The notes under the pieces: model-generated
Database searches by the model: none
The model's input: the letters and a program-made list of their open reading frames with translations, nothing else
What the model was told of the DNA's origin: nothing
Program-made: the position numbers and the translations under genes
Shown here: positions 6,433-40,742 of the stretch, one piece after another
Position numbering within the stretch: position 1 is the first letter of the stretch
Layout of the letters: each line of letters begins with the position of its first letter
Origin: Candidatus Bathyarchaeota archaeon
GTDB taxonomy: Archaea; Thermoproteota; Bathyarchaeia; Bathyarchaeales; Bathycorpusculaceae
Assembly: GCA_963733095.1 (NCBI GenBank)
Contig: CAVTBV010000012.1
Coordinates: 59,915-123,914, forward strand
Direction: 5' to 3'
Length of the DNA stretch: 64,000 nucleotides

Positions 6433-6500
6433 TTTTTGCTTAAGTACCGCAAACTTGAAAAAGCCACCTGTCCATAAGGTCAGAAGAAACAAGCATTCAG

Positions 6501-6761
6501 GTGGTAGCCATGGCAAAACTCAATAAAGTCGATGAAAAAGTTGTTGCAACTCTTCAATCAGAAGGTAGAGAATTAACACTACAAGAATTAACTGATAAAA
6601 CGGGCGAACCCTCCAAGAAGGTTTTTCGTTCCTTGCGAAAACTTTTCGAAAACGAGGTTGTGTCAACCCAAGCCCGCAAATACAAGCTGGTAATTACCGA
6701 CACCAAAGCAATCAAAGCGAAGCTTGCGGCTAAGGCAGAAGACGAAAGCGAACCCGAGTAA
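6501..6761 (+). CDS. Small winged-helix DNA-binding protein
   Basis: ELTLQELTDKTGEPSKKVFRSLRKLFENEVV HTH-like pattern. Confidence 0.55.
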   Translation: MVAMAKLNKVDEKVVATLQSEGRELTLQELTDKTGEPSKKVFRSLRKLFENEVVSTQARKYKLVITDTKAIKAKLAAKAEDESEPE

Positions 6762-6778
6762 AAATTTTTTGTTAAATT

Positions 6779-6855
6779 TGGAGCCTCGAGCGGGCCTTGC
6801 TCCCGCGGCCTGCTGCTTACAAGGCAGCCGCTCTACTGGGCTGAGCTATCGAGGC
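6779..6855 (-). tRNA. tRNA-Thr(UGU), 77 nt, CCA encoded, non-canonical D/T loops
   Basis: Manual cloverleaf: GCCTCGA/TCGAGGC acceptor stem, GCTGC-CTTGTAA-GCAGC anticodon arm, GCGGG-AGCAAGG-CCCGC T arm, U73-CCA. Confidence 0.93.
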
Positions 6856-7023
6856 ACTCAACAAAGTTGCCCAGATTACACCAACAAATAAACCTTATAC
6901 AAATAAAAGTTACTGCTAAAAATCCAACATGACTTGGATTCGCAGAGGAAAATTTACCTTTCCATGGTTTGTTTTTCTGTTTAGCAAGACATCAATTTCA
7001 ACCATGCGAGTAACAGTCAAAGC

Positions 7024-7245
7024 TTATTGTTCGCAGCTTATTACTTCGTCTTTGTCTTCTTTCATTTTTAAATTATGTTTTTTGACAATGTTGGTTATTT
7101 GTTGAATGATTTCGGAATCCGCGGCTACTTTTAAGTGTATTTCAAGGTTTTTAGCAGCGCCTTTCGAGGGAAGGTTAGACACTAAGTAGTAGGCGTTTGC
7201 ACCCATGTTTTCGCCAAGATTTATAATTTCTTTACCAGATAGCAA
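7024..7245 (-). CDS. Small hypothetical protein
   Basis: ORF only; no family recognised. Confidence 0.35.
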   Translation of the reverse strand: MLSGKEIINLGENMGANAYYLVSNLPSKGAAKNLEIHLKVAADSEIIQQITNIVKKHNLKMKEDKDEVISCEQ

Positions 7246-30385: not shown

Positions 30386-32386
30386 TCAAACAAAAAGCGT
30401 CAATAGTCTGAAGGCTAAACCCCCAATCAACACTGCAGCCGCAATGTTTGCCAACGATATGGTTGTTGCGGCTTTCCAACCGAATTCTTTTGCCAAAATA
30501 GCCACTGTTGAAACACAGGGTATGTAGAGCATTGCCACCAAAGCCATGATAACTAGTTGTACGGGTGAGAAGTACAGTGCCAAGTTGGTTGTTCCAAAGA
30601 TTGCGACGGCGCCGAGGAGCACGAATTCTTTGCGTACCGTGCCCAAGATGAGGAGTACCCCTGCCGCCGAAGGTAAGCCCAGCCACCAAACGGTCAATGG
30701 CGAGATTGCATTACTGAGGGGCGTCAACACGTTATATACGTACAAAGCTTGAAGCAGTGCGCTACCAACAATGTAGATGGGAAACACAATGTAGATGATT
30801 GATTTGGTTCTAGCCCATGTCTGCTTCAGCACAACTTTAAGCGAGGGAACCTTGAAGCTGCTCATTTCCATAATCAACCCAGTCGATTTGCCAGGAACCA
30901 CTTTCATAGCGATCCTACCTAAAGCAAAGATTACGGCAACATCAACCACATAGAGCAAAAGTGCCCATTGTATTCCGACAAATAACCCGACCATGCCAAA
31001 GAGCACGATGGTTCTGGCGGAACAAGGCGCAAAAGTTATAGCGAATGCTGCAAGAAGCCGCTCGCGTCGAGTCTCCATAATTTTGCAGGCTTGAATCGCT
31101 GGGACGTTACACCCGTAACCCAAAATTATCGGAATCAAAGCTTTACCGTGTAAACCCATCTTGTGCATCGCACTATCCATCACGAAGGCTACTCTGGTGA
31201 GGACTCCTGAGTTTTCAACAAAAGCCAACAGCAGGTAAAACGGGATAACGAAGGGTAAAATCAGGGTTAGCCCAGCGTTAAATCCTCCCCACACACCGTT
31301 CAAAACAATCGACAGAATCGGTTGGGATGCAGATAAAGCAGGATCAATTGGTTTGATGACGCTTAATCCACTTGAAATCAAATTAGAAAGTTCATTCCCT
31401 ATAAAGAAGGTCCAAAGCAGCAATCCAGCAATTATTCCCACCGATGTAAAGTATCCTAGCACCCTGTGGGTAGTTAACCAGTCGAGTTTTTCAGAGAAAG
31501 TGCTCTTCACTTCAGTTTGCTGGAGTGCAGAAGCGGCAATGGAACTTGCAAGAGCATATCGTTCAGAAGCGATGAGCGAGAAGCATACTTCTTGACATTT
31601 ACTGGACATTTCTTTTGATATTGTTAGGGCAGAATCGATGATTGTCCTTGACTGGGCAGATACGGCTTTGACGATTTCGGTGTCGCCTTCAAGCAGTTTT
31701 ATTGCAAGCCAACGAGGCGGATACTGCAGTGAAAGGTTGGCTTTTTCTATAACCTGTTTTAGTTTTTCGATGCTTTCTTCCACGTCTCGGCGGTATCTTA
31801 GACGTTTGACTTTCGGTTTGGATAGGGCGACGTTTACAGCTTCACCCATGAGTTCATAGATGCCTTCACCTCTCGTTGCCACAACAAAAACGACGGGCAC
31901 ACCAAGGGCTTGTTGCAACTTTTCCTTGTCAAGTACCATTCCTTTGCCTTTTGCAACATCCACTTGATTTACACATAAAACCAGAGGAGCCTGCAATTCA
32001 AGCAACTGGAGCGTAAAGAACAGGTTTCTTTCCAAAACTGAAGCGTCAACAACGTTTATGACCACGTCGGGTTTTTCAAGAGCGATGTAATCTCTTGAAA
32101 CAAGTTCCTCCATGGAAAACGTTGAAAACGAGTAGATGCCCGGTAAGTCTATAATCTTTATTTCATAGCCTTCATAGCTAAGAGTACCCTCTGCGCGATC
32201 CACGGTTTTTCCGGGCCAATTACCGATTATCTGGTTTGACCCGGTAAGCTGGTTGAAGATTACGCTTTTGCCTACGTTGGCGTTTCCTGCAAGCGCAAAA
32301 GTTAGTTGATTACAGTTTTTTCCTTTGGATATTTGCCCTTTTGACTTAGCATTAGGATGGCATGACAAATTCTGCAGCCTCCTCAA
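30386..32386 (-). CDS. feoB: Ferrous iron transporter FeoB
   Basis: G1 [27 protein letters not shown]; gate motifs [10 protein letters not shown] and APCSAR; LYIPC. Confidence 0.96.
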
Positions 32387-33102
32387 CTCTTGTGTTCAAC
32401 TTCAACGAAAACTTTGGATGCGATACCTCTGCCCAACGCTAATTTTGATCCTCGCACTGAAATCTCGATAGGTCCCTCAAACGGTGCTGATTTCAGCAGA
32501 GTTATCTTTGTACTAGGTGTTAACCCCATATCTAAAAGCCGCTGGAGCACGTTATGACCGCCTCTAATGAAGGAGATTTTGCCTGATTGCCCCCTTTTCA
32601 ACTCGCTTAATGCAACGAGGTTTTCTTTTCGTTTCCCAACTTCTTCTAAGCCTTGATTGTGAAGTTGGATGCATTCTTCACAGTTAGAGAAGGGTAAGTT
32701 ACAGGCGGGGATGGTTTTGCCATCATCAGAACAGATGTCTGGATGCTTTAGTAGGCGGCAGAGGGATTCTTCAGCTTCGTCTGAGAGGGCGTGCTCAAGC
32801 TGGCAAGCTTCCTTGTGAACTTTGTCTTTTCCGATGTGTAAAACGTCGAAGAGGAAGGTTTCGAGTAAGCGGTGTTTTCGGGTTACTCTTTGTGCTTCTT
32901 GGAGGCCTTTTTCGGTGAGGGCGCTGCCGTGGTAGGGCGAATATTTTACGTAGCCTTCTTCGGATAGTTTTTTGAGCATTTCGGTTACGCTGGCGGGTGT
33001 TACGTTTAGTTTTTGGGAAATTTCGGTGTTGCTGACTAGATCTCCGTTTCTTGCTATGCTGTAGACGGCTTTGAGGTAGTCTTGGGTTGATTTTTGCTCC
33101 AT
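32383..33102 (-). CDS. DtxR/MntR-family metalloregulator with C-terminal FeoA domain
   Basis: [38 protein letters not shown]; FeoA LLDMGLTP...[14 protein letters not shown]. Confidence 0.93.
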
Positions 33103-33118
33103 GTTAATCACCCTGTTT

Positions 33119-33174
33119 TTTAGGCACACCTAAATTTGGCTTTCAGAACTAATAAATGTTTAGGCGCACCTAAA
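33119..33174. promoter_or_regulatory. Pair of DtxR-type operators flanking the TATA box of the dtxR-feoB operon
   Basis: TTTAGG-CACA-CCTAAA (33119-33134) and TTTAGG-CGCA-CCTAAA (33159-33174), 40 bp apart. Confidence 0.8.
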
Positions 33175-33285: not shown

Positions 33286-34623
33286 ATGAAAGACCTGCCC
33301 AACTTAGTCGCAGATATAGTTGAAGCAACCAAAAAACACGAACACTACCGCGACAAAGAATGCATAAACATGATTGCCAGCGAAGGACTCAAGTCTCCAG
33401 CCGTCAACCAAATGCTCGACCTATCACACGACCTCGCATGCCGCTACGCAGAAGGCGAAAACGACGCCTTAGGCCACGTTAAGAAGCGGTATTATCAAGG
33501 GCAGAAGTTCATGTCTGAAATCGAGGATTTTGCGACTGACATTATGAAAAGCCTGTTTAACAGCACTTGGGCAGATGTCCGTTTAGTTTCAGGCACACAT
33601 GCAAACCTTGCAACTTTCAAGGGGTTATCTTTAGCCTCAAAGAACAACAAGATGGTTGTCACGCCCCTGAGCTGCGGCGCCCACATAAGCCACGATTACA
33701 CAGGTTTAGCAGGCAACGTTTTGGGTTTAGAGAACATAAACCACGTTTACAACATTGACGAATTCAACATTGACCCAGACAAATCAGCATACGTCATCCG
33801 CGCCGCAAAGCCAGGAATTGTTACGTTCGGTGGAAGCCTTTTCCTATTTCCACATCCAATCAAAGAGCTCAGAGCAGTCTGTGAAGAAGTCGGCGCATAC
33901 ATAGCCTACGACGCGTCCCACGTACTGGGCTTGATTGCGGGCGGCGAGTTCCAAGACCCCCTCCGAGAAGGCGCAGACTTCATCACATCATCTACCCACA
34001 AAACTTTCCCCGGTCCCCAAGGCGGTGTTATTATGGGAAGCCCAACTAACCCGGCAACCGAGAAGGCAGTGAAAAAGATACAATTTGCTGTTTTTCCACT
34101 CAGCGCATCAAGCACACACTTAGGCAGGTTGCCAGCACTCAGCATCGCGGCTTTGGAAATGAAGGTTTTCGGCTCACAATTAGCTAAGCAAATCGTCAAG
34201 AATGCTCAAACCGCAGGACAGTACCTCTGCGAAAACGGCGTGAAGGTCCTCGCAGAAAACAAAGGCTTCACAAAGAGCCACCAAATCGCTGTAGACATCC
34301 GCAACTTCGGAGGCGGCAACAAGATGGCACAGGACCTCGAAGACGCTAACATCATCCTAAACAAGAACCTCTTACCCTACGATGACCAAAGCAGCAAAGC
34401 AGACCCCTCAGGTTTGAGGATAGGCTTTCAAGACATAACAAGACGCGGCTTTGGCGAAGGCGACATCAAACACCTCTGCGACCTAATGCTTGACGTAATC
34501 AAGGGAAAACGTACACCCACCCAAGTTAAGATTGATGTTTTGGCGCTAAAGAAAGATTTTTGCAGCGTAAAGTACGGTTTCCAAAGCGTGCAAGAAGCCT
34601 TAGCTTACATTAAAAAGGCTTAA
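33286..34623 (+). CDS. glyA: Serine hydroxymethyltransferase
   Basis: INMIASE, RYAEG, RYYQG, SGTHAN, YDASHVLGLIAG, SSTHKTFPGPQGG (PLP Lys), SGLRIG. Confidence 0.96.
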   Translation: MKDLPNLVADIVEATKKHEHYRDKECINMIASEGLKSPAVNQMLDLSHDLACRYAEGENDALGHVKKRYYQGQKFMSEIEDFATDIMKSLFNSTWADVRLVSGTHANLATFKGLSLASKNNKMVVTPLSCGAHISHDYTGLAGNVLGLENINHVYNIDEFNIDPDKSAYVIRAAKPGIVTFGGSLFLFPHPIKELRAVCEEVGAYIAYDASHVLGLIAGGEFQDPLREGADFITSSTHKTFPGPQGGVIMGSPTNPATEKAVKKIQFAVFPLSASSTHLGRLPALSIAALEMKVFGSQLAKQIVKNAQTAGQYLCENGVKVLAENKGFTKSHQIAVDIRNFGGGNKMAQDLEDANIILNKNLLPYDDQSSKADPSGLRIGFQDITRRGFGEGDIKHLCDLMLDVIKGKRTPTQVKIDVLALKKDFCSVKYGFQSVQEALAYIKKA

Positions 34624-34696
34624 ACCACCCCTCTTTCGTTTTTCTTGGTGCTAAAGATTAATAAAGTCACATTTCGCTTTTAGCATAGGAAAACCC

Positions 34697-34984
34697 ATGA
34701 CCTTCGATTTCCTTTCAATTCTCTTCTTAATCGTTGCCATAGGGTTTGTTGTGCTTTTTGTGTTACTTCCAAGGTTCGGTCCGCATTACACTTCGAGGCT
34801 GACTTGCCCGAATTGCAGAAAAAGCTTCAATTTCCACTGGGTACCAGGCGCCACCATAACCTCACTCGTCTACAGGGGTAGACGACCGCTAAAATGTCCC
34901 TATTGCCATGTTAAATCAACCTACGACATCATGTCTACAAGAGTCACCAAACCAAAGACCCAAAAAGTCAAGCAAAAGGCATAA
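34697..34984 (+). CDS. Membrane-anchored zinc-ribbon protein
   Basis: N-terminal TM helix, CPNC and CPYC motifs. Confidence 0.65.
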   Translation: MTFDFLSILFLIVAIGFVVLFVLLPRFGPHYTSRLTCPNCRKSFNFHWVPGATITSLVYRGRRPLKCPYCHVKSTYDIMSTRVTKPKTQKVKQKA

Positions 34985-35066
34985 CTGACACAGCGTTCTA
35001 TCAGAGAACTTTATTATCCACAACAGCAATCAACTTTTTAACTAACATTTACGGGAGACACTTAGA

Positions 35067-36251
35067 ATGAAGGTACTGTTGAACGATGGCTTAGAGAAAG
35101 AAGGCTTAATGCTCTTTCATGAAGCAGGTATAGAAACAGACTTAAAAAAACGTGATTTAGCCGCTCTAATCGCTGATATTGGACAGTTTGACGCTTTAGT
35201 CGTTCGCAGCGCCACCAAGGTCACGCGCGAGGTTTTGGAAGCAGGCGCCAAGGGCAAACTCAAAATCGTCGGCAGAGCAGGCGTCGGATACGACAACATC
35301 GACACGGCTGCAGCTTCTGAATTCGGTATTGTAGTAAAGATAGCGCCGTATGGAAGCACGAACGCCGTTGCAGAATTAACCTTCGACCTAATGCTGAGTA
35401 TTTCAAGAAAGACACCCCAAGCCCACCACTCGCTTAAGAGTGGGGTTTGGAAAAAAGATACGCTCAAAGGCAACGAACTCGCCTACAAGACGCTGGGTCT
35501 TTTGGGTTGCGGCAGAATAGGACAAAAAGTTGCCCAAATCGCCAGACGTGGCTTTGACATGGAAGTCATAGGCTACGACATTAAACCATGCTTTGAATCA
35601 GGCATAAGATTCATGACTAAAGAGGAAGTGCTCGCCAAAGCCGACTACATCAGCATCCACACGGGCGGCAAAGAAGTCATAATCGGTGAAAAAGAATTCG
35701 CACTCATGAAACCCACGACCTACGTAATCAACACCTCCCGAGGCAGCAACATTGACCAGCGAGCACTCTACAAGGCACTCAAAGAAGGCAAAATCGCTGG
35801 CGCAGCAACCGATGTCTACAAGGAAGAGCCCAAAGGGGAAGGTACCGAATTCAAAGACCAACTAAAAGAACTCGACAACATCGTGCTAAGCAGCCACCTT
35901 GGCGCATCAACAGCGGAAGCCCAAAGAGAAACCTCAACAGAGATTGCCCGCGTAGTCTCAGGCTACCTTTTAGGTGGAGACTTTACCAACGCCGTGAACG
36001 CTGGAGAAAACATCGAAGTGGAAGAAAAACCAGTATACACACTCTTCATTCACCATAGAGACGTTCCAGGCGTGTTTGCCAACATCGACAAAGTTCTCGC
36101 CGAAAACGACGTCAACATCCGAGCAAACTATTCACGGCAAATCGGCAAAAGCGGCTACGCCATCTCAGTGTATGTTCTGCACAAAAAAGTTGCCAATAAA
36201 ACGCTTGAGGTTCTAAAGAAAATCGACAATGTCTGCGACGTCAAAACCTAA
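35067..36251 (+). CDS. serA: D-3-phosphoglycerate dehydrogenase with ACT domain
   Basis: LVVRSATKV, GRAGVGYDNID, GCGRIG, INTSRG, DVY..EP, SSHLGAST; ACT HRDVPGV. Confidence 0.92.
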   Translation: MKVLLNDGLEKEGLMLFHEAGIETDLKKRDLAALIADIGQFDALVVRSATKVTREVLEAGAKGKLKIVGRAGVGYDNIDTAAASEFGIVVKIAPYGSTNAVAELTFDLMLSISRKTPQAHHSLKSGVWKKDTLKGNELAYKTLGLLGCGRIGQKVAQIARRGFDMEVIGYDIKPCFESGIRFMTKEEVLAKADYISIHTGGKEVIIGEKEFALMKPTTYVINTSRGSNIDQRALYKALKEGKIAGAATDVYKEEPKGEGTEFKDQLKELDNIVLSSHLGASTAEAQRETSTEIARVVSGYLLGGDFTNAVNAGENIEVEEKPVYTLFIHHRDVPGVFANIDKVLAENDVNIRANYSRQIGKSGYAISVYVLHKKVANKTLEVLKKIDNVCDVKT

Positions 36252-36336
36252 AAAGACAGAATCTACAAAACACACAACTTCGAATTTCAATCAAGTTAAA
36301 GTGTATATAAGAGAGCATTCGCGTTAAATTCATCAA

Positions 36337-37017
36337 ATGAAACTCGCAGTACTGTTTTCAGGCGGCAAGGACTCAACTCTTGCACTGCACTTGGCGGCAG
36401 AAAAGGAAGAGGTAGCTTGCCTGGTCACTGTGGTTTCAAAGAACAAGGAAAGCTACATGTTCCATACCCCAAACATCGATGTGACGGCGCTTCAGGGAGA
36501 GGCGTTGGGGTTCCCGTTGGTTTCGGTGGTTACGGAAGGGCGGAAGGAAGAGGAGCTTGCCGACTTGGAAAAAGCAATCGTTGAGGCGAAAGAGAAATTT
36601 CAAGTTGATGGCGTGGTTACAGGTGCGGTAGAATCTGTTTACCAAGCTTCAAGGGTTCAGCGCATCTGCAACTGCCTAAATATCTGGTGCTTTAACCCTC
36701 TGTGGAAGCATGACCAGAAAGCACTTTTGGAAACGCTCATCGCGAAGAATTTCAAGGTGGTTATTTCGGGGATTTTTGCTTATCCGCTCGACGAGAAATG
36801 GCTTGGAAAACAAATAGATGGGGCAATCATAAACAAGCTCATTGAGCTTCAAGGTAAATATGGGATTAGCCCCTCGGGGGAGGGGGGAGAGATTGAGACG
36901 ACCGTTCTTGATGCTCCAATGTTTAAACAGAAAATAGAAATCCTCGATTATGGGGTTGAAGCAAGGGGGAACTGTGGAGTTTTCCAGATTAAGAATGCTC
37001 GGTTGGTGCCCAAATGA
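36337..37017 (+). CDS. dph6: Diphthine--ammonia ligase (PP-loop ATPase)
   Basis: LFSGGKDS, SYMFHTPN, GAVESVYQ..RV, SPSGEGGEIETTVLDAP. Confidence 0.88.
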   Translation: MKLAVLFSGGKDSTLALHLAAEKEEVACLVTVVSKNKESYMFHTPNIDVTALQGEALGFPLVSVVTEGRKEEELADLEKAIVEAKEKFQVDGVVTGAVESVYQASRVQRICNCLNIWCFNPLWKHDQKALLETLIAKNFKVVISGIFAYPLDEKWLGKQIDGAIINKLIELQGKYGISPSGEGGEIETTVLDAPMFKQKIEILDYGVEARGNCGVFQIKNARLVPK

Positions 37018-37562
37018 TTCTGGTAGTGGACATGAACTGGAAGCGGAATTCTTTGGCGTTTAGCGAGTTTGTTTCCCCAATCATTTCTGTTGTGCAGCGG
37101 CTTGAGGAATGCGAGGTGAAGCATTTTTTAGATATTGAGCCAGGGGAACTTGGGGATTATAGCAAGATTGTACTCTCGGGAACAACTCTCAAAGACCATG
37201 AAACCCTAAAGCAACTCGGTAGGTTCAGTTGGATAAAAACGTGTGAGAACCCCATTTTGGGAATTTGCGCAGGCATGCAAACTATAGCTTTAGTTTTTAA
37301 AGAATACCTAACGCCGTGTCTGCAAATCGGAATGACAGAAAACAAAACTCTTAAAACCAACCCGCTTTTCCAAGGCGACTTTAAGGCTTATGCCCTTCAC
37401 AACTACTCAGTTGGAAATTGCCAAAACTTTGAAACACTTGCAGAATCCACAAAATGCATCCAAGCCATAAAACACAAACAAAAAAACATCTACGGTGTCC
37501 TATTCCACCCAGAAGTGCGAAACCAAGATATCCTAAAACGTTTCATGCAACTAAACCAGTAA
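37014..37562 (+). CDS. Class I glutamine amidotransferase (glutaminase) domain protein
   Basis: VLSG, PILGICAGMQ (nucleophile Cys), LFHPEV (His-Glu); ATGA overlap with dph6. Confidence 0.85.
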   Translation: MILVVDMNWKRNSLAFSEFVSPIISVVQRLEECEVKHFLDIEPGELGDYSKIVLSGTTLKDHETLKQLGRFSWIKTCENPILGICAGMQTIALVFKEYLTPCLQIGMTENKTLKTNPLFQGDFKAYALHNYSVGNCQNFETLAESTKCIQAIKHKQKNIYGVLFHPEVRNQDILKRFMQLNQ

Positions 37563-37616
37563 CCTGGATTGCTGTGGTCCCAATCCTCTTAAGCATCGAA
37601 GCACTATTCTTTTCAA

Positions 37617-37805
37617 ATGCAACCCCCAAGGATCCAGATCAAGCCAGGCATCCGCGTTAAAATCGTTTTGAAGCAGGACCAACAGAGCGGCAGATTAACT
37701 GAGGGCACCGTCAAAGAAATCTTGACCAGCAGTCCAACTCACCCTCACGGAATCAAAGTGCGACTTACAGATGGAAAAGTCGGCAGAGTACAATCAATTG
37801 GCTGA
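37617..37805 (+). CDS. YwbE family (DUF2196) protein
   Basis: IKPG..V.IVLKQDQ.SG.LTEG.VKEILT.SPTHPHGIKVRL.DG.VGRV. Confidence 0.9.
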   Translation: MQPPRIQIKPGIRVKIVLKQDQQSGRLTEGTVKEILTSSPTHPHGIKVRLTDGKVGRVQSIG

Positions 37806-37876
37806 GCCTAAAAAAGAAGAGTTAAATAGAATTTTCATTTCAGCAAAAAATGCCAAAAAACAAAAATGTAAGATGT

Positions 37877-38167
37877 TTAGGGCGTTGTCTCTGGGACATA
37901 GGCGTTAGTTTGCATTTCGGTTTCCTGTTCAGCTGCTGATCTTGCAGGTTTTGAGGTAAGGGCTGCGACTGTGAATGAAAGAACGGCGGATACTATAAAC
38001 GGAAGCATTGCAGTTACGACAGTCAACGCTATGAAGATTTCAGGAGCAGCTGAGGAATACAGTGTTGTATCCAATTTGTAATTTATTATTCCTGCTACCG
38101 CAGAAAATACTGAGAATATGATGCCAAACGCGATGGCGATTTTATTTACAATTTTCCAGTTATCTAT
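37877..38167 (-). CDS. Small 2-TM membrane protein, apparent ATA start
   Basis: The frame extends 31 codons upstream of the ORF-track start through a TM helix to ATA, preceded by SD GGTGA. Confidence 0.5.
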   Translation of the reverse strand: MDNWKIVNKIAIAFGIIFSVFSAVAGIINYKLDTTLYSSAAPEIFIALTVVTAMLPFIVSAVLSFTVAALTSKPARSAAEQETEMQTNAYVPETTP

Positions 38168-38327
38168 TTGTCCTCACCAGTAATCCTTTGCTTGTACTGC
38201 GGAGCTTTTAAGCTATTGCTATTTCAAGCTGAAACCGCCCCCTTCATCAAAGCATGTTGGCGATTGGTAGAAGGGGTTAAAAGTTAATAGGGAGTGTTTC
38301 AATTTAGACTAATGGGAGATTTTTGTT

Positions 38328-40742
38328 TTGGCCAATCAACTATCCGTAGAGAAACTACGTAATGTTTGTGATGCTAATTTTATGCATTGTGAATCAACCA
38401 AGGACCTGATTCCGCTCAGTGAAATCATCGGTCAAGAAAGAGCTGTCCGAGCATTAAAATTTGGATTAGGAATAAAAAACCATGGCTTCAACGTATACGT
38501 GGCAGGGTACCCTGGAACAGGAAGAAAAACCGCAGTCAAAAACTTCGTGGAAGCCCAAGCTAAAACGCGACCTGTTCCGCCCGACTGGTGCTACGTGAAC
38601 AATTTTGGGAATCCGTATGAGCCAAAAGCCATAATGTTGCCAGCTGGAAAGGGCAAAGAATTCCGAGAAGGCCTAAAAAACTTCATTGAAAACGTAAAGA
38701 CTACGCTTCCGAAGGCTTTTGAAAGTGAAGACTACGTCGCTCGAAGAGAAGCTACAATTAAAGGGTTAGAAAGCCAGCGGAAAAAACTAATCGATGAGTT
38801 AAGCAGCAAGGCGCAGCGTGAAGGTTTCGTAATTCAAACGACCCCAATCGGCATACTACTTATTCCAGTGGTAAATGGCAAACCGTTAAGTGAAGAAGAA
38901 ATTCTTGCGCTCCCCACAAAAACAAGGGATCAACTAAACGAGAAAAGGGAACAGTTGGAAACTGAATTCAGAAACACCATGCGGCAACTTATCGATATGG
39001 AGCGTAAAATCCATGAGGCGCTCAGGAAACTAAACAAGGAAGTTGCCCTCTACGCGCTGGGAAACCAAGTGGAGAGCCTGAAAGAGAAATATCAAGCTAC
39101 CCCAGAAGTTACAACTTACCTAAAAGAAGTAGAAAGTGACGTTCTGGATAATCTGCAGCAATTTATAAGAAGAGGCGAACCTGAACAGCAACTTCCGTTT
39201 CCGATGCCTTGGATGAAAGAAGAACCCTACAAAAAATATGAAGTAAACCTAGTTATTGACAACTCTAACACGACAGGTGCGCCAGTGGTCATGGAGACTA
39301 ACCCTACATACCACAATTTGCTTGGCAGAACCGAGAAAGAAGCCCAGTTCGGCGCTCTCATCACCGATTTTAGAATGATACGCGGAGGAGCAATTCATCG
39401 GGCTAATGGCGGATACTTAATTGTTCCAGTTGAAGATTTGCTTAGAAACCCATTATCCTACGATGGCTTGAAGCGAGATGTCAGGGATGGAAAAATGTTC
39501 ATAGAAGAACCAGAAGAACGCTACGGCTTCCTCAGCGTAAAAACCCTAAAACCCCAGCCCATTCCATTAACCGCCAAAATAATCCTCATAGGCACACCCT
39601 ACCTATACCAACTCATGTTCTCATTAGACCCTGATTTTCAAGAACTCTTTAAGATAAAGGCCGAATTCGACACGACTATGCCAAGAACAGACGAAAAAAT
39701 ACGACAATACGCCGCATTCGTATGTAGCCTTTGCGATAAAGAAGGACTCAAACACCTTGATGGTAGCGGCTTAGCAAAACTAATCGAGTACAGCTCAAGA
39801 ATAATCGAAGACCAGTACAAGCTATCGACACAATTTTCCAATATTGCGGACATAATTCGCGAATCAAACTACTATGCCTCAGAAGAAAACTCGGAATTTA
39901 TAACAGGATACCAAGTCAAAAAGGCCATCGAAGAAAAGATTTACCGCTCAAAACTCATCCAAGAAAAAATCCAAGAAATGATTACCCGTGGCTTCTTCCT
40001 CATCGACACCGTTGAAAATAAGGTTGGTCAGGTTAACGGTTTATCTGTTATGGGATTAGGAGATTTCGCTTTCGGCATGCCCTCACGCGTGACAGCTAGC
40101 ATCGGTTTAGGCCGTGAAGGCGTCATGGATATTGAACGTGAAGCAAAAATGGGCGGACCCATACACACTAAAGGCGTTTTGATTCTCAGCGGTTACCTAA
40201 ACGACAAGTATGCAAGGGATAAGCCACTTAGCCTTTCAGCAAGACTGGTCTTTGAGCAAAGCTATGAAGGCGTTGAAGGCGACAGCGCATCAAGCACCGA
40301 GCTCTACAGCATACTCTCCGCACTCAGTGGATTGCCAATCAAACAGAACCTAGCCGTCACCGGCTCCGTTAACCAGAAGGGAGAAGTCCAAGCTATCGGT
40401 GGCGTCAACGAAAAAATCGAAGGTTTCTATGAAGTCTGCAAAGCCAAAGGATTGACTGGCGCACAGGGAGTTATGATTCCGGACAGCAACGTTCAAAACC
40501 TGATGCTAAAAGAAGAAGTCGTGGACGCGGTTAAAGCAGGCAAATTCAACGTGTACTCGGTTAAAACAATCGACGAAGGCATCGAAGTTCTCACAGGAAC
40601 TAAAGCAGGGGGACGGCGATCAGATGGAACCTATGAGGAAGGCACCGTAAACTATTTGGTGGACAAGCAACTGCGCGAGATGGCGGAGAAACTAAAAGAA
40701 TACCCAGCCGTACAAGCACACCAGAAAAAGCTCGAAGAGTAG
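38328..40742 (+). CDS. Lon-like protease, soluble LonC/AAA_32 type
   Basis: IIGQERA, GQVNGLSV, GPIHTKG, EGDSASS (Ser), GGVNEKIEGF (Lys); no membrane anchor. Confidence 0.92.
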   Translation: MANQLSVEKLRNVCDANFMHCESTKDLIPLSEIIGQERAVRALKFGLGIKNHGFNVYVAGYPGTGRKTAVKNFVEAQAKTRPVPPDWCYVNNFGNPYEPKAIMLPAGKGKEFREGLKNFIENVKTTLPKAFESEDYVARREATIKGLESQRKKLIDELSSKAQREGFVIQTTPIGILLIPVVNGKPLSEEEILALPTKTRDQLNEKREQLETEFRNTMRQLIDMERKIHEALRKLNKEVALYALGNQVESLKEKYQATPEVTTYLKEVESDVLDNLQQFIRRGEPEQQLPFPMPWMKEEPYKKYEVNLVIDNSNTTGAPVVMETNPTYHNLLGRTEKEAQFGALITDFRMIRGGAIHRANGGYLIVPVEDLLRNPLSYDGLKRDVRDGKMFIEEPEERYGFLSVKTLKPQPIPLTAKIILIGTPYLYQLMFSLDPDFQELFKIKAEFDTTMPRTDEKIRQYAAFVCSLCDKEGLKHLDGSGLAKLIEYSSRIIEDQYKLSTQFSNIADIIRESNYYASEENSEFITGYQVKKAIEEKIYRSKLIQEKIQEMITRGFFLIDTVENKVGQVNGLSVMGLGDFAFGMPSRVTASIGLGREGVMDIEREAKMGGPIHTKGVLILSGYLNDKYARDKPLSLSARLVFEQSYEGVEGDSASSTELYSILSALSGLPIKQNLAVTGSVNQKGEVQAIGGVNEKIEGFYEVCKAKGLTGAQGVMIPDSNVQNLMLKEEVVDAVKAGKFNVYSVKTIDEGIEVLTGTKAGGRRSDGTYEEGTVNYLVDKQLREMAEKLKEYPAVQAHQKKLEE

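Follow-up and report, generated by a model that had tools for sequence, protein, structure and literature searches.

Two overlapping genes in the genome of a soil archaeon of the order Bathyarchaeales probably encode a two-subunit, glutamine-dependent diphthine amidotransferase (diphthamide synthetase), in which a Dph6 protein would be paired with a class I glutamine amidotransferase (GATase) of its own. Such a two-subunit enzyme had been proposed in a first-pass annotation of this DNA, and gene fusions, synteny, sequence conservation and predicted folds lend the proposal support. EF-2 carries diphthamide in archaea and eukaryotes alike, and this conserved modification is what diphtheria toxin attacks. 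Where its amide nitrogen comes from has been discussed ever since the identification of Dph6 in 2012, the candidates being RidA domains (eukaryotes) and AsnB fusions (a few archaea). Because the pair described here is found adjacent or fused across many archaeal lineages, this last nitrogen would probably come from glutamine rather than from free ammonia.

The gene pair and its surroundings

The pair lies on the forward strand of the window, the whole 64,000-nucleotide stretch of DNA that was analysed, which comes from a 2.84-Mb Bathyarchaeales MAG (95% complete). Its features, in window coordinates, are:

36304-36310, + strand: TATATAA, a TATA-box-like element about 30 nt 5' of the dph6 ATG, read from the sequence
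36337-37017, + strand: dph6, 226 aa (P0001), predicted diphthine-amidating PP-loop ATP pyrophosphatase, with the PP-loop SGGKDS at residues 8-13 (36358-36375)
37005-37008, + strand: GGTG, Shine-Dalgarno-like, 5 nt 5' of the GATase ATG and within the dph6 coding sequence
37014-37017, + strand: ATGA, stop/start overlap of 4 nt, read from the sequence
37014-37562, + strand: Dph6-associated class I GATase, 182 aa (P0002), with a PF00117 match
37266-37268, + strand: TGC codon of Cys85, in the GICAGMQ motif
37506-37508, + strand: His165, in the FHPE motif
37512-37514, + strand: Glu167, in the FHPE motif

The overlap of the dph6 stop with the GATase start, on which the first-pass annotation had drawn, is confirmed together with both ORFs: dph6 ends in ...CCC AAA TGA, and the GATase ATG begins with the last A of the Lys codon, an arrangement consistent with translational coupling of the two genes. 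The GGTG is a predicted Shine-Dalgarno-like element for the GATase. An 85-nt spacer from serA precedes the TATATAA element, a putative promoter that, by the spacing generally known from archaeal promoters, would yield a near-leaderless bicistronic transcript.

The neighbouring genes are feoB, glyA, serA, an iron repressor/feoA gene, and genes for a DUF2196 protein and a Lon-like protease. No GMP synthase ATPase subunit is among them, as had been stated at the first reading, and the only GuaA synthetase domain in the genome is part of a fused GuaA on contig 1. An Rfam scan of 34500-38500 gave no match at E up to 0.1. The small DUF2196 gene (37617-37805, + strand; 105 bits), which starts 55 nt past the GATase stop, was considered as a part of the module and rejected, since it is found downstream of the pair only in the nearest relatives. 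On the opposite strand (30386-33129), the start of feoB overlaps a gene that fuses a DtxR/IdeR-type iron-dependent repressor to a FeoA domain: together they form an ordinary iron-uptake unit, although the repressor-FeoA fusion is itself notable.

Judged by its sequence, P0001 is a full member of the Dph6 family. It scores 277.6 bits against TIGR03679 (Dph6_archaeal; equivalog cut-off 197.3) and 237 bits against PF01902 (DUF71), aligns with the Pyrococcus structures PH1257 and PF0828 (2d13, 3rjz) at 175-177 bits, and in these alignments keeps the PP-loop SGGKDS and the GEGGE-x-E motif. All of the PF0828 residues that de Crecy-Lagard et al. (2012; PMC3541065) placed at the modelled EF-2 interface (S44, Y45, E78, Y103, Q104, A149, E183, E186 and E188) are conserved in P0001, as are the proposed catalytic residues. 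The genome holds four PF01902 paralogs, only P0001 exceeding the Dph6 cut-off; the Dph6 model gives the other three 138, 110 and 102 bits. Dph2 (298 bits) and Dph5 (303 bits) are encoded by one gene each, and there is an EF-2-sized ORF of 744 aa with an HEDPVHRG loop (H-x-D-x-x-H-R-G). PF01902 is represented by the linked Dph6 alone in five out of five genomes, drawn from five lineages, all of which carry Dph2; there it must be the amidating enzyme of the pathway.

The other DUF71 genes of the host genome are outside the window, on its contig 12. The third paralog, at 138 bits (299235-299927, - strand; L028:2001-2669), is 32-35% identical to any Dph6, and is found across the genus at 69-87% identity, Dph6-less genomes included; it could conceivably serve as a back-up for the amidation step. 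The two more divergent DUF71/PP-loop paralogs (within 340192-349395; L029:2007-2750, + strand, and 6473-7177, - strand) have three B12-binding radical SAM genes and a PQQ-like beta-propeller gene as neighbours, and apparently belong to an uncharacterised cluster for modification or biosynthesis that has no relation to diphthamide. Elsewhere in the archaea, some Dph6 proteins of about 400 aa (P0233, P0235, P0236) have an HD-domain region (PF13328/PF01966) fused in place of the glutaminase.

P0002 matches PF00117 at 59.8 bits (cut-off 22.8). Its Cys-His-Glu triad, described as intact at the first reading, is indeed so: Cys85, His165 and Glu167, along with G83 and G87 of the G-x-C-x-G nucleophile elbow, are invariant across 30 diverse homologues (alignment A1), and both triad and elbow are at least 90% conserved among 114 fusions to Dph6. 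P0002 belongs to a distinct archaeal GATase family, which has conserved motifs of its own at E18, P22, D61 and H129, with family-specific E18, G56 and H129 invariant in the same 30 homologues. Over its full length P0002 is 42% identical to the C-terminal domain of a fused Dph6-GATase, P0122; it is this domain, rather than P0002 itself, that showed the GATase alpha/beta fold, Foldseek matching it to GuaA-A structures at a TM of about 0.8.

Conservation, fusion and loss of the linkage

In 17 genomes of the genus, dph6 is followed by the GATase with the ATGA overlap and both genes are intact, the orthologues being 52-77% (GATase) and 68-83% (Dph6) identical; three further Bathyarchaeales genera have this arrangement too. 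Co-occurrence and fusion were analysed more widely with a profile of 30 diverse stand-alone homologues, which yielded 80 loci in species-representative genomes, 65 of them with a true orthologue. Dph6 is directly upstream on the same strand at 58 of these 65 loci, which were found via the GATase, so that the count tells how often the GATase sits with Dph6 and not the reverse; 36 of the adjacent loci have the identical overlap geometry, and two are fused. Five further loci have Dph6 0.5-3.4 kb upstream; one of the remaining two is at a contig edge, and the other is without Dph6 in reach. The hosts belong to the Bathyarchaeia, Methanomicrobiales, Methanotrichaceae, Methanosarcinales, Theionarchaea, Thermoplasmata, Aenigmatarchaeota, Woesearchaeota, Pacearchaeota and Nanoarchaeota, and include a Thermococci MAG. 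Of 81 genomes sampled from the Methanomicrobia (the class of Methanospirillum), about 50 have the GATase family, several of them as fused frames of 446-482 aa.

A protein search with Dph6 recovered more than 100 natural proteins of 405-507 aa with an N-terminal Dph6, a linker and a C-terminal GATase, from Methanothrix, Micrarchaeota, Aenigmarchaeota, Woesearchaeota and others; their domain order is the gene order of the pair in the window. At E up to 1e-10, an exhaustive homologue search gave 360 clusters (50% identity level), most of which are stand-alone proteins about 180 aa long. The linkage goes far beyond what chance would produce, since dozens of genomes in several phyla repeat the geometry seen in the window; a linkage that is not conserved, which the first-pass annotation had allowed for as evidence against its own reading, is the opposite of what is seen in the 17 genus genomes and at 63 of the 65 orthologue loci. 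Single-contig methanogen genomes, presumably those of isolates, have the pair as well, which makes experiments on it feasible.

Both genes are under purifying selection, going by within-genus dN/dS values, calculated from genome loci, of 0.137 (GATase) and 0.085 (Dph6), and the pairwise distances of the two proteins are correlated (r = 0.89, 83 pairs), which is what co-inheritance should give. Two fusions with 45% identity between them were modelled with AF2 and reached pLDDT values of 91.7 and 91.5 and pTM values of 0.90 and 0.89, with disordered linkers of 21-22 residues; such pTM values across disordered linkers suggest that the Dph6 and GATase domains are confidently predicted to pack in a fixed arrangement. 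Foldseek matched the N-terminal domain to PH1257/PF0828 (TM 0.95), and the C-terminal domain to glutaminase subunits of GMP synthetase.

Within the Bathyarchaeales the distribution is patchy: the pair is found only in one family (f1, three genera) and in four of the six genomes of one genus of another (f11), other families of the order having a Dph6 that is only 43-48% identical to P0001 and is without the GATase. Compared with 22 GATase-less Dph6 sequences (from these other families and five Methanomicrobia, thus two lineages only), the linked type has a signature of Cys28, Ala104, Gln108, Cys118, Asn120, Gln127, Phe147 and Pro150, all of which P0001 carries; position 150 is always Gly in the 22. 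Residues 81-84 are present in the linked type, P0001 included, whereas the GATase-less set is gapped at signature column 84, and in Pyrococcus PH1257 and PF0828 all four residues are missing. Positions 104, 108, 118, 120 and 127 appear to drift after loss of the GATase in four lineages, few enough events that this is only a lead. Since two genomes (G006, G071) and two f11 genomes keep the linked-type Dph6 without a GATase, the partner would be helpful but not obligatory.

In a free Dph6 tree, the 22 GATase-less rows are split from 70 linked-type rows with an SH-aLRT of 99; the GATase-less sample covering two lineages, linked Dph6 is not claimed as an exclusive clade among all archaea. An AU test in which all 38 Bathyarchaeales rows were held together, a group named after the free tree had been seen, did not reject that arrangement (delta lnL 11.2, p = 0.335). 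Horizontal transfer of the module into this genus is accordingly not established, and the patchiness could reflect either horizontal spread or repeated, differential loss.

Four related genomes have defects in the module. In G015 (L026/L147), dph6 has in-frame stops and the GATase is broken, with Dph2 and Dph5 intact; in G023 (L025/L146), the GATase is frameshifted, the Dph6 match begins at residue 14 and Dph2 has six stops. Two genus members, G010 and G020 (92% and 95% complete, respectively), have no Dph6 above the cut-off, and have intact Dph2 and Dph5. The module thus looks dispensable for part of the genus; either diphthine amidation has really been lost there, or the defects could stem from indel errors in long-read MAGs.

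Proposed mechanism and alternative readings

Adenylation of the diphthine carboxylate is an established step for the Dph6 family. In the enzyme proposed here, P0001 would carry it out on EF-2 in an ATP-dependent manner via its PP-loop, while P0002 would hydrolyse glutamine at Cys85/His165/Glu167; the ammonia released would be handed to the Dph6 active site across a fixed protein-protein interface, by analogy with the split archaeal GMP synthetase. Owing to the 4-nt overlap, the two subunits would be made in about equal amounts. Free ammonia could probably still be used, at lower efficiency, since some relatives keep this type of Dph6 after the GATase has been lost.

One alternative is that the pair is a glutamine-dependent PP-loop amidotransferase, but one whose substrate is not diphthine, or not only diphthine, the carboxylate being instead on some other protein or small molecule. 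The signature of the linked Dph6, the presence of four DUF71 paralogs in the host genome, and the two genomes that keep Dph2 and Dph5 without a Dph6 above the cut-off would all fit with this; the equivalog cut-off that P0001 passes and its three paralogs fail, the conservation in P0001 of the residues proposed to face EF-2 in PF0828, and the position of the linked gene as sole DUF71 member beside Dph2 in all five of the genomes from five lineages speak against it, and we consider it unlikely. A similarly low probability is given to a model in which P0002 partners Dph6 without delivering ammonia, whether by some other gamma-glutamyl hydrolysis (of peptidase C26 type) or as a scaffold or regulator. 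P0002 does have weak matches to Peptidase_C26 and to gamma-glutamyl-CDP-amidate hydrolase, and in some genomes the linked type of Dph6 outlives its GATase; the invariant triad, however, favours catalysis over a scaffold role, the nearest structures and families are glutaminase subunits of GMP synthetase, and joining a class I GATase with a PP-loop adenylating enzyme in one chain is how amidotransferases are classically built, as in GuaA, NadE and related enzymes.

Could the GATase belong to an ordinary GMP synthase as its subunit A, or be a protein of TrpG/PabA type, and lie beside dph6 by chance? In databases, the stand-alone homologues go under "GMP synthase-like glutamine amidotransferase" (the fusions are labelled "diphthine--ammonia ligase"), and the best NCBIfam match of P0002 is GuaA subunit A (PRK00758); this match is at 66.8 bits, however, against a cut-off of 198, and that to TIGR00888 is at 56.2 bits against 172. 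Seven class I GATase domains were found in the genome, and the six others are accounted for by a fused 527-aa GuaA, TrpG, CarA, PyrG, HisH and PurQ, so that no other synthase needs P0002. A separate GuaA-B subunit was not found genome-wide, the only TIGR00884 match above the cut-off being inside the fused GuaA. Methanomicrobia that have this gene carry a second, weaker-scoring GATase of GuaA-A size, and both the Dph6 linkage and the fusions, which hold across phyla, already refute a chance neighbour. Identity with GuaA subunit A or TrpG is accordingly rejected for P0002, leaving it a very remote prospect; and the partnership with GuaA-B or TrpE against which the first-pass annotation had set its own reading does not fit a genome that has a complete fused GuaA, a TrpG encoded elsewhere, and a GATase below the GuaA-A cut-offs.

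A broader proposal is also reasonably likely: that there is a second form of the last diphthamide enzyme, a glutamine-hydrolysing diphthine amidotransferase (of EC 6.3.5 type, not 6.3.1.14) composed of a distinct Dph6 subtype and a dedicated class I glutaminase, split or fused, on which most Methanomicrobia, Methanothrix, many DPANN and some Bathyarchaeia would depend as their sole route of amidation. The dedicated glutaminase subunit would define a new enzyme activity, and a widespread mis-annotation of both stand-alone genes and fusions would be corrected. Such an enzyme would be a simple and testable model for the channelling of ammonia to a substrate carried on a protein, and may explain how diphthamide is completed in acidic or ammonia-poor habitats, for example by peat and soil Bathyarchaeia.

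Comparison with known systems

With the characterised Dph6 (EC 6.3.1.14; yeast YLR143W, archaeal PF0828, PH1257 and MJ0570), P0001 shares the PP-loop, the EGGE-x-E motif and the residues proposed to face EF-2. The Dph6 proteins that have been characterised or structurally solved stand alone, or have RidA-like domains in eukaryotes, whereas the type described here has a dedicated glutaminase. Characterised Dph6 has been described as ammonium-using, and work in yeast treats ammonia as the donor (PMC3585130).

That glutamine might feed Dph6 is, as a general idea, not new: de Crecy-Lagard et al. (2012; PMC3541065) suggested that NH3 is supplied by a GAT-II/AsnB domain which a few archaea have fused to DUF71. 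A literature search found no description of the class I glutaminase-Dph6 form, the only related proposal being this one, which makes no mention of a class I partner. The AsnB-DUF71 fusions (Methanohalophilus, Methanosalsum, Nanosalinarum; PMC3541065), which were also recovered in the protein search (P0232, P0238, P0241), share with the pair in the window the proposed principle of glutamine hydrolysis feeding Dph6. They differ in that their glutaminase is of class II (Ntn), comes with an extra PP-loop domain, is N-terminal and is found in few genomes; that of the window type is a class I triad enzyme, either C-terminal or the product of its own coupled gene, and it occurs in far more genomes.

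The closest parallel is the two-subunit archaeal GMP synthetase (M. jannaschii, P. horikoshii; PDB 2lxn, 7d40, 1wl8, 2d7j), which likewise combines a small stand-alone class I GATase (about 185 aa) with a PP-loop adenylating enzyme, and whose GuaA-A is the nearest relative of P0002 in both sequence and structure. Each of the two systems also occurs as one fused chain in other lineages. The synthetase partner, however, is Dph6, from the DUF71 branch of PP-loop enzymes, rather than GuaA-B, and the substrate would be a modified histidine on EF-2 rather than XMP; P0002 fails the family cut-offs for GuaA-A and has its own motifs (E18, P22, D61, H129); and the order here is synthetase then glutaminase, the reverse of that in fused GuaA.
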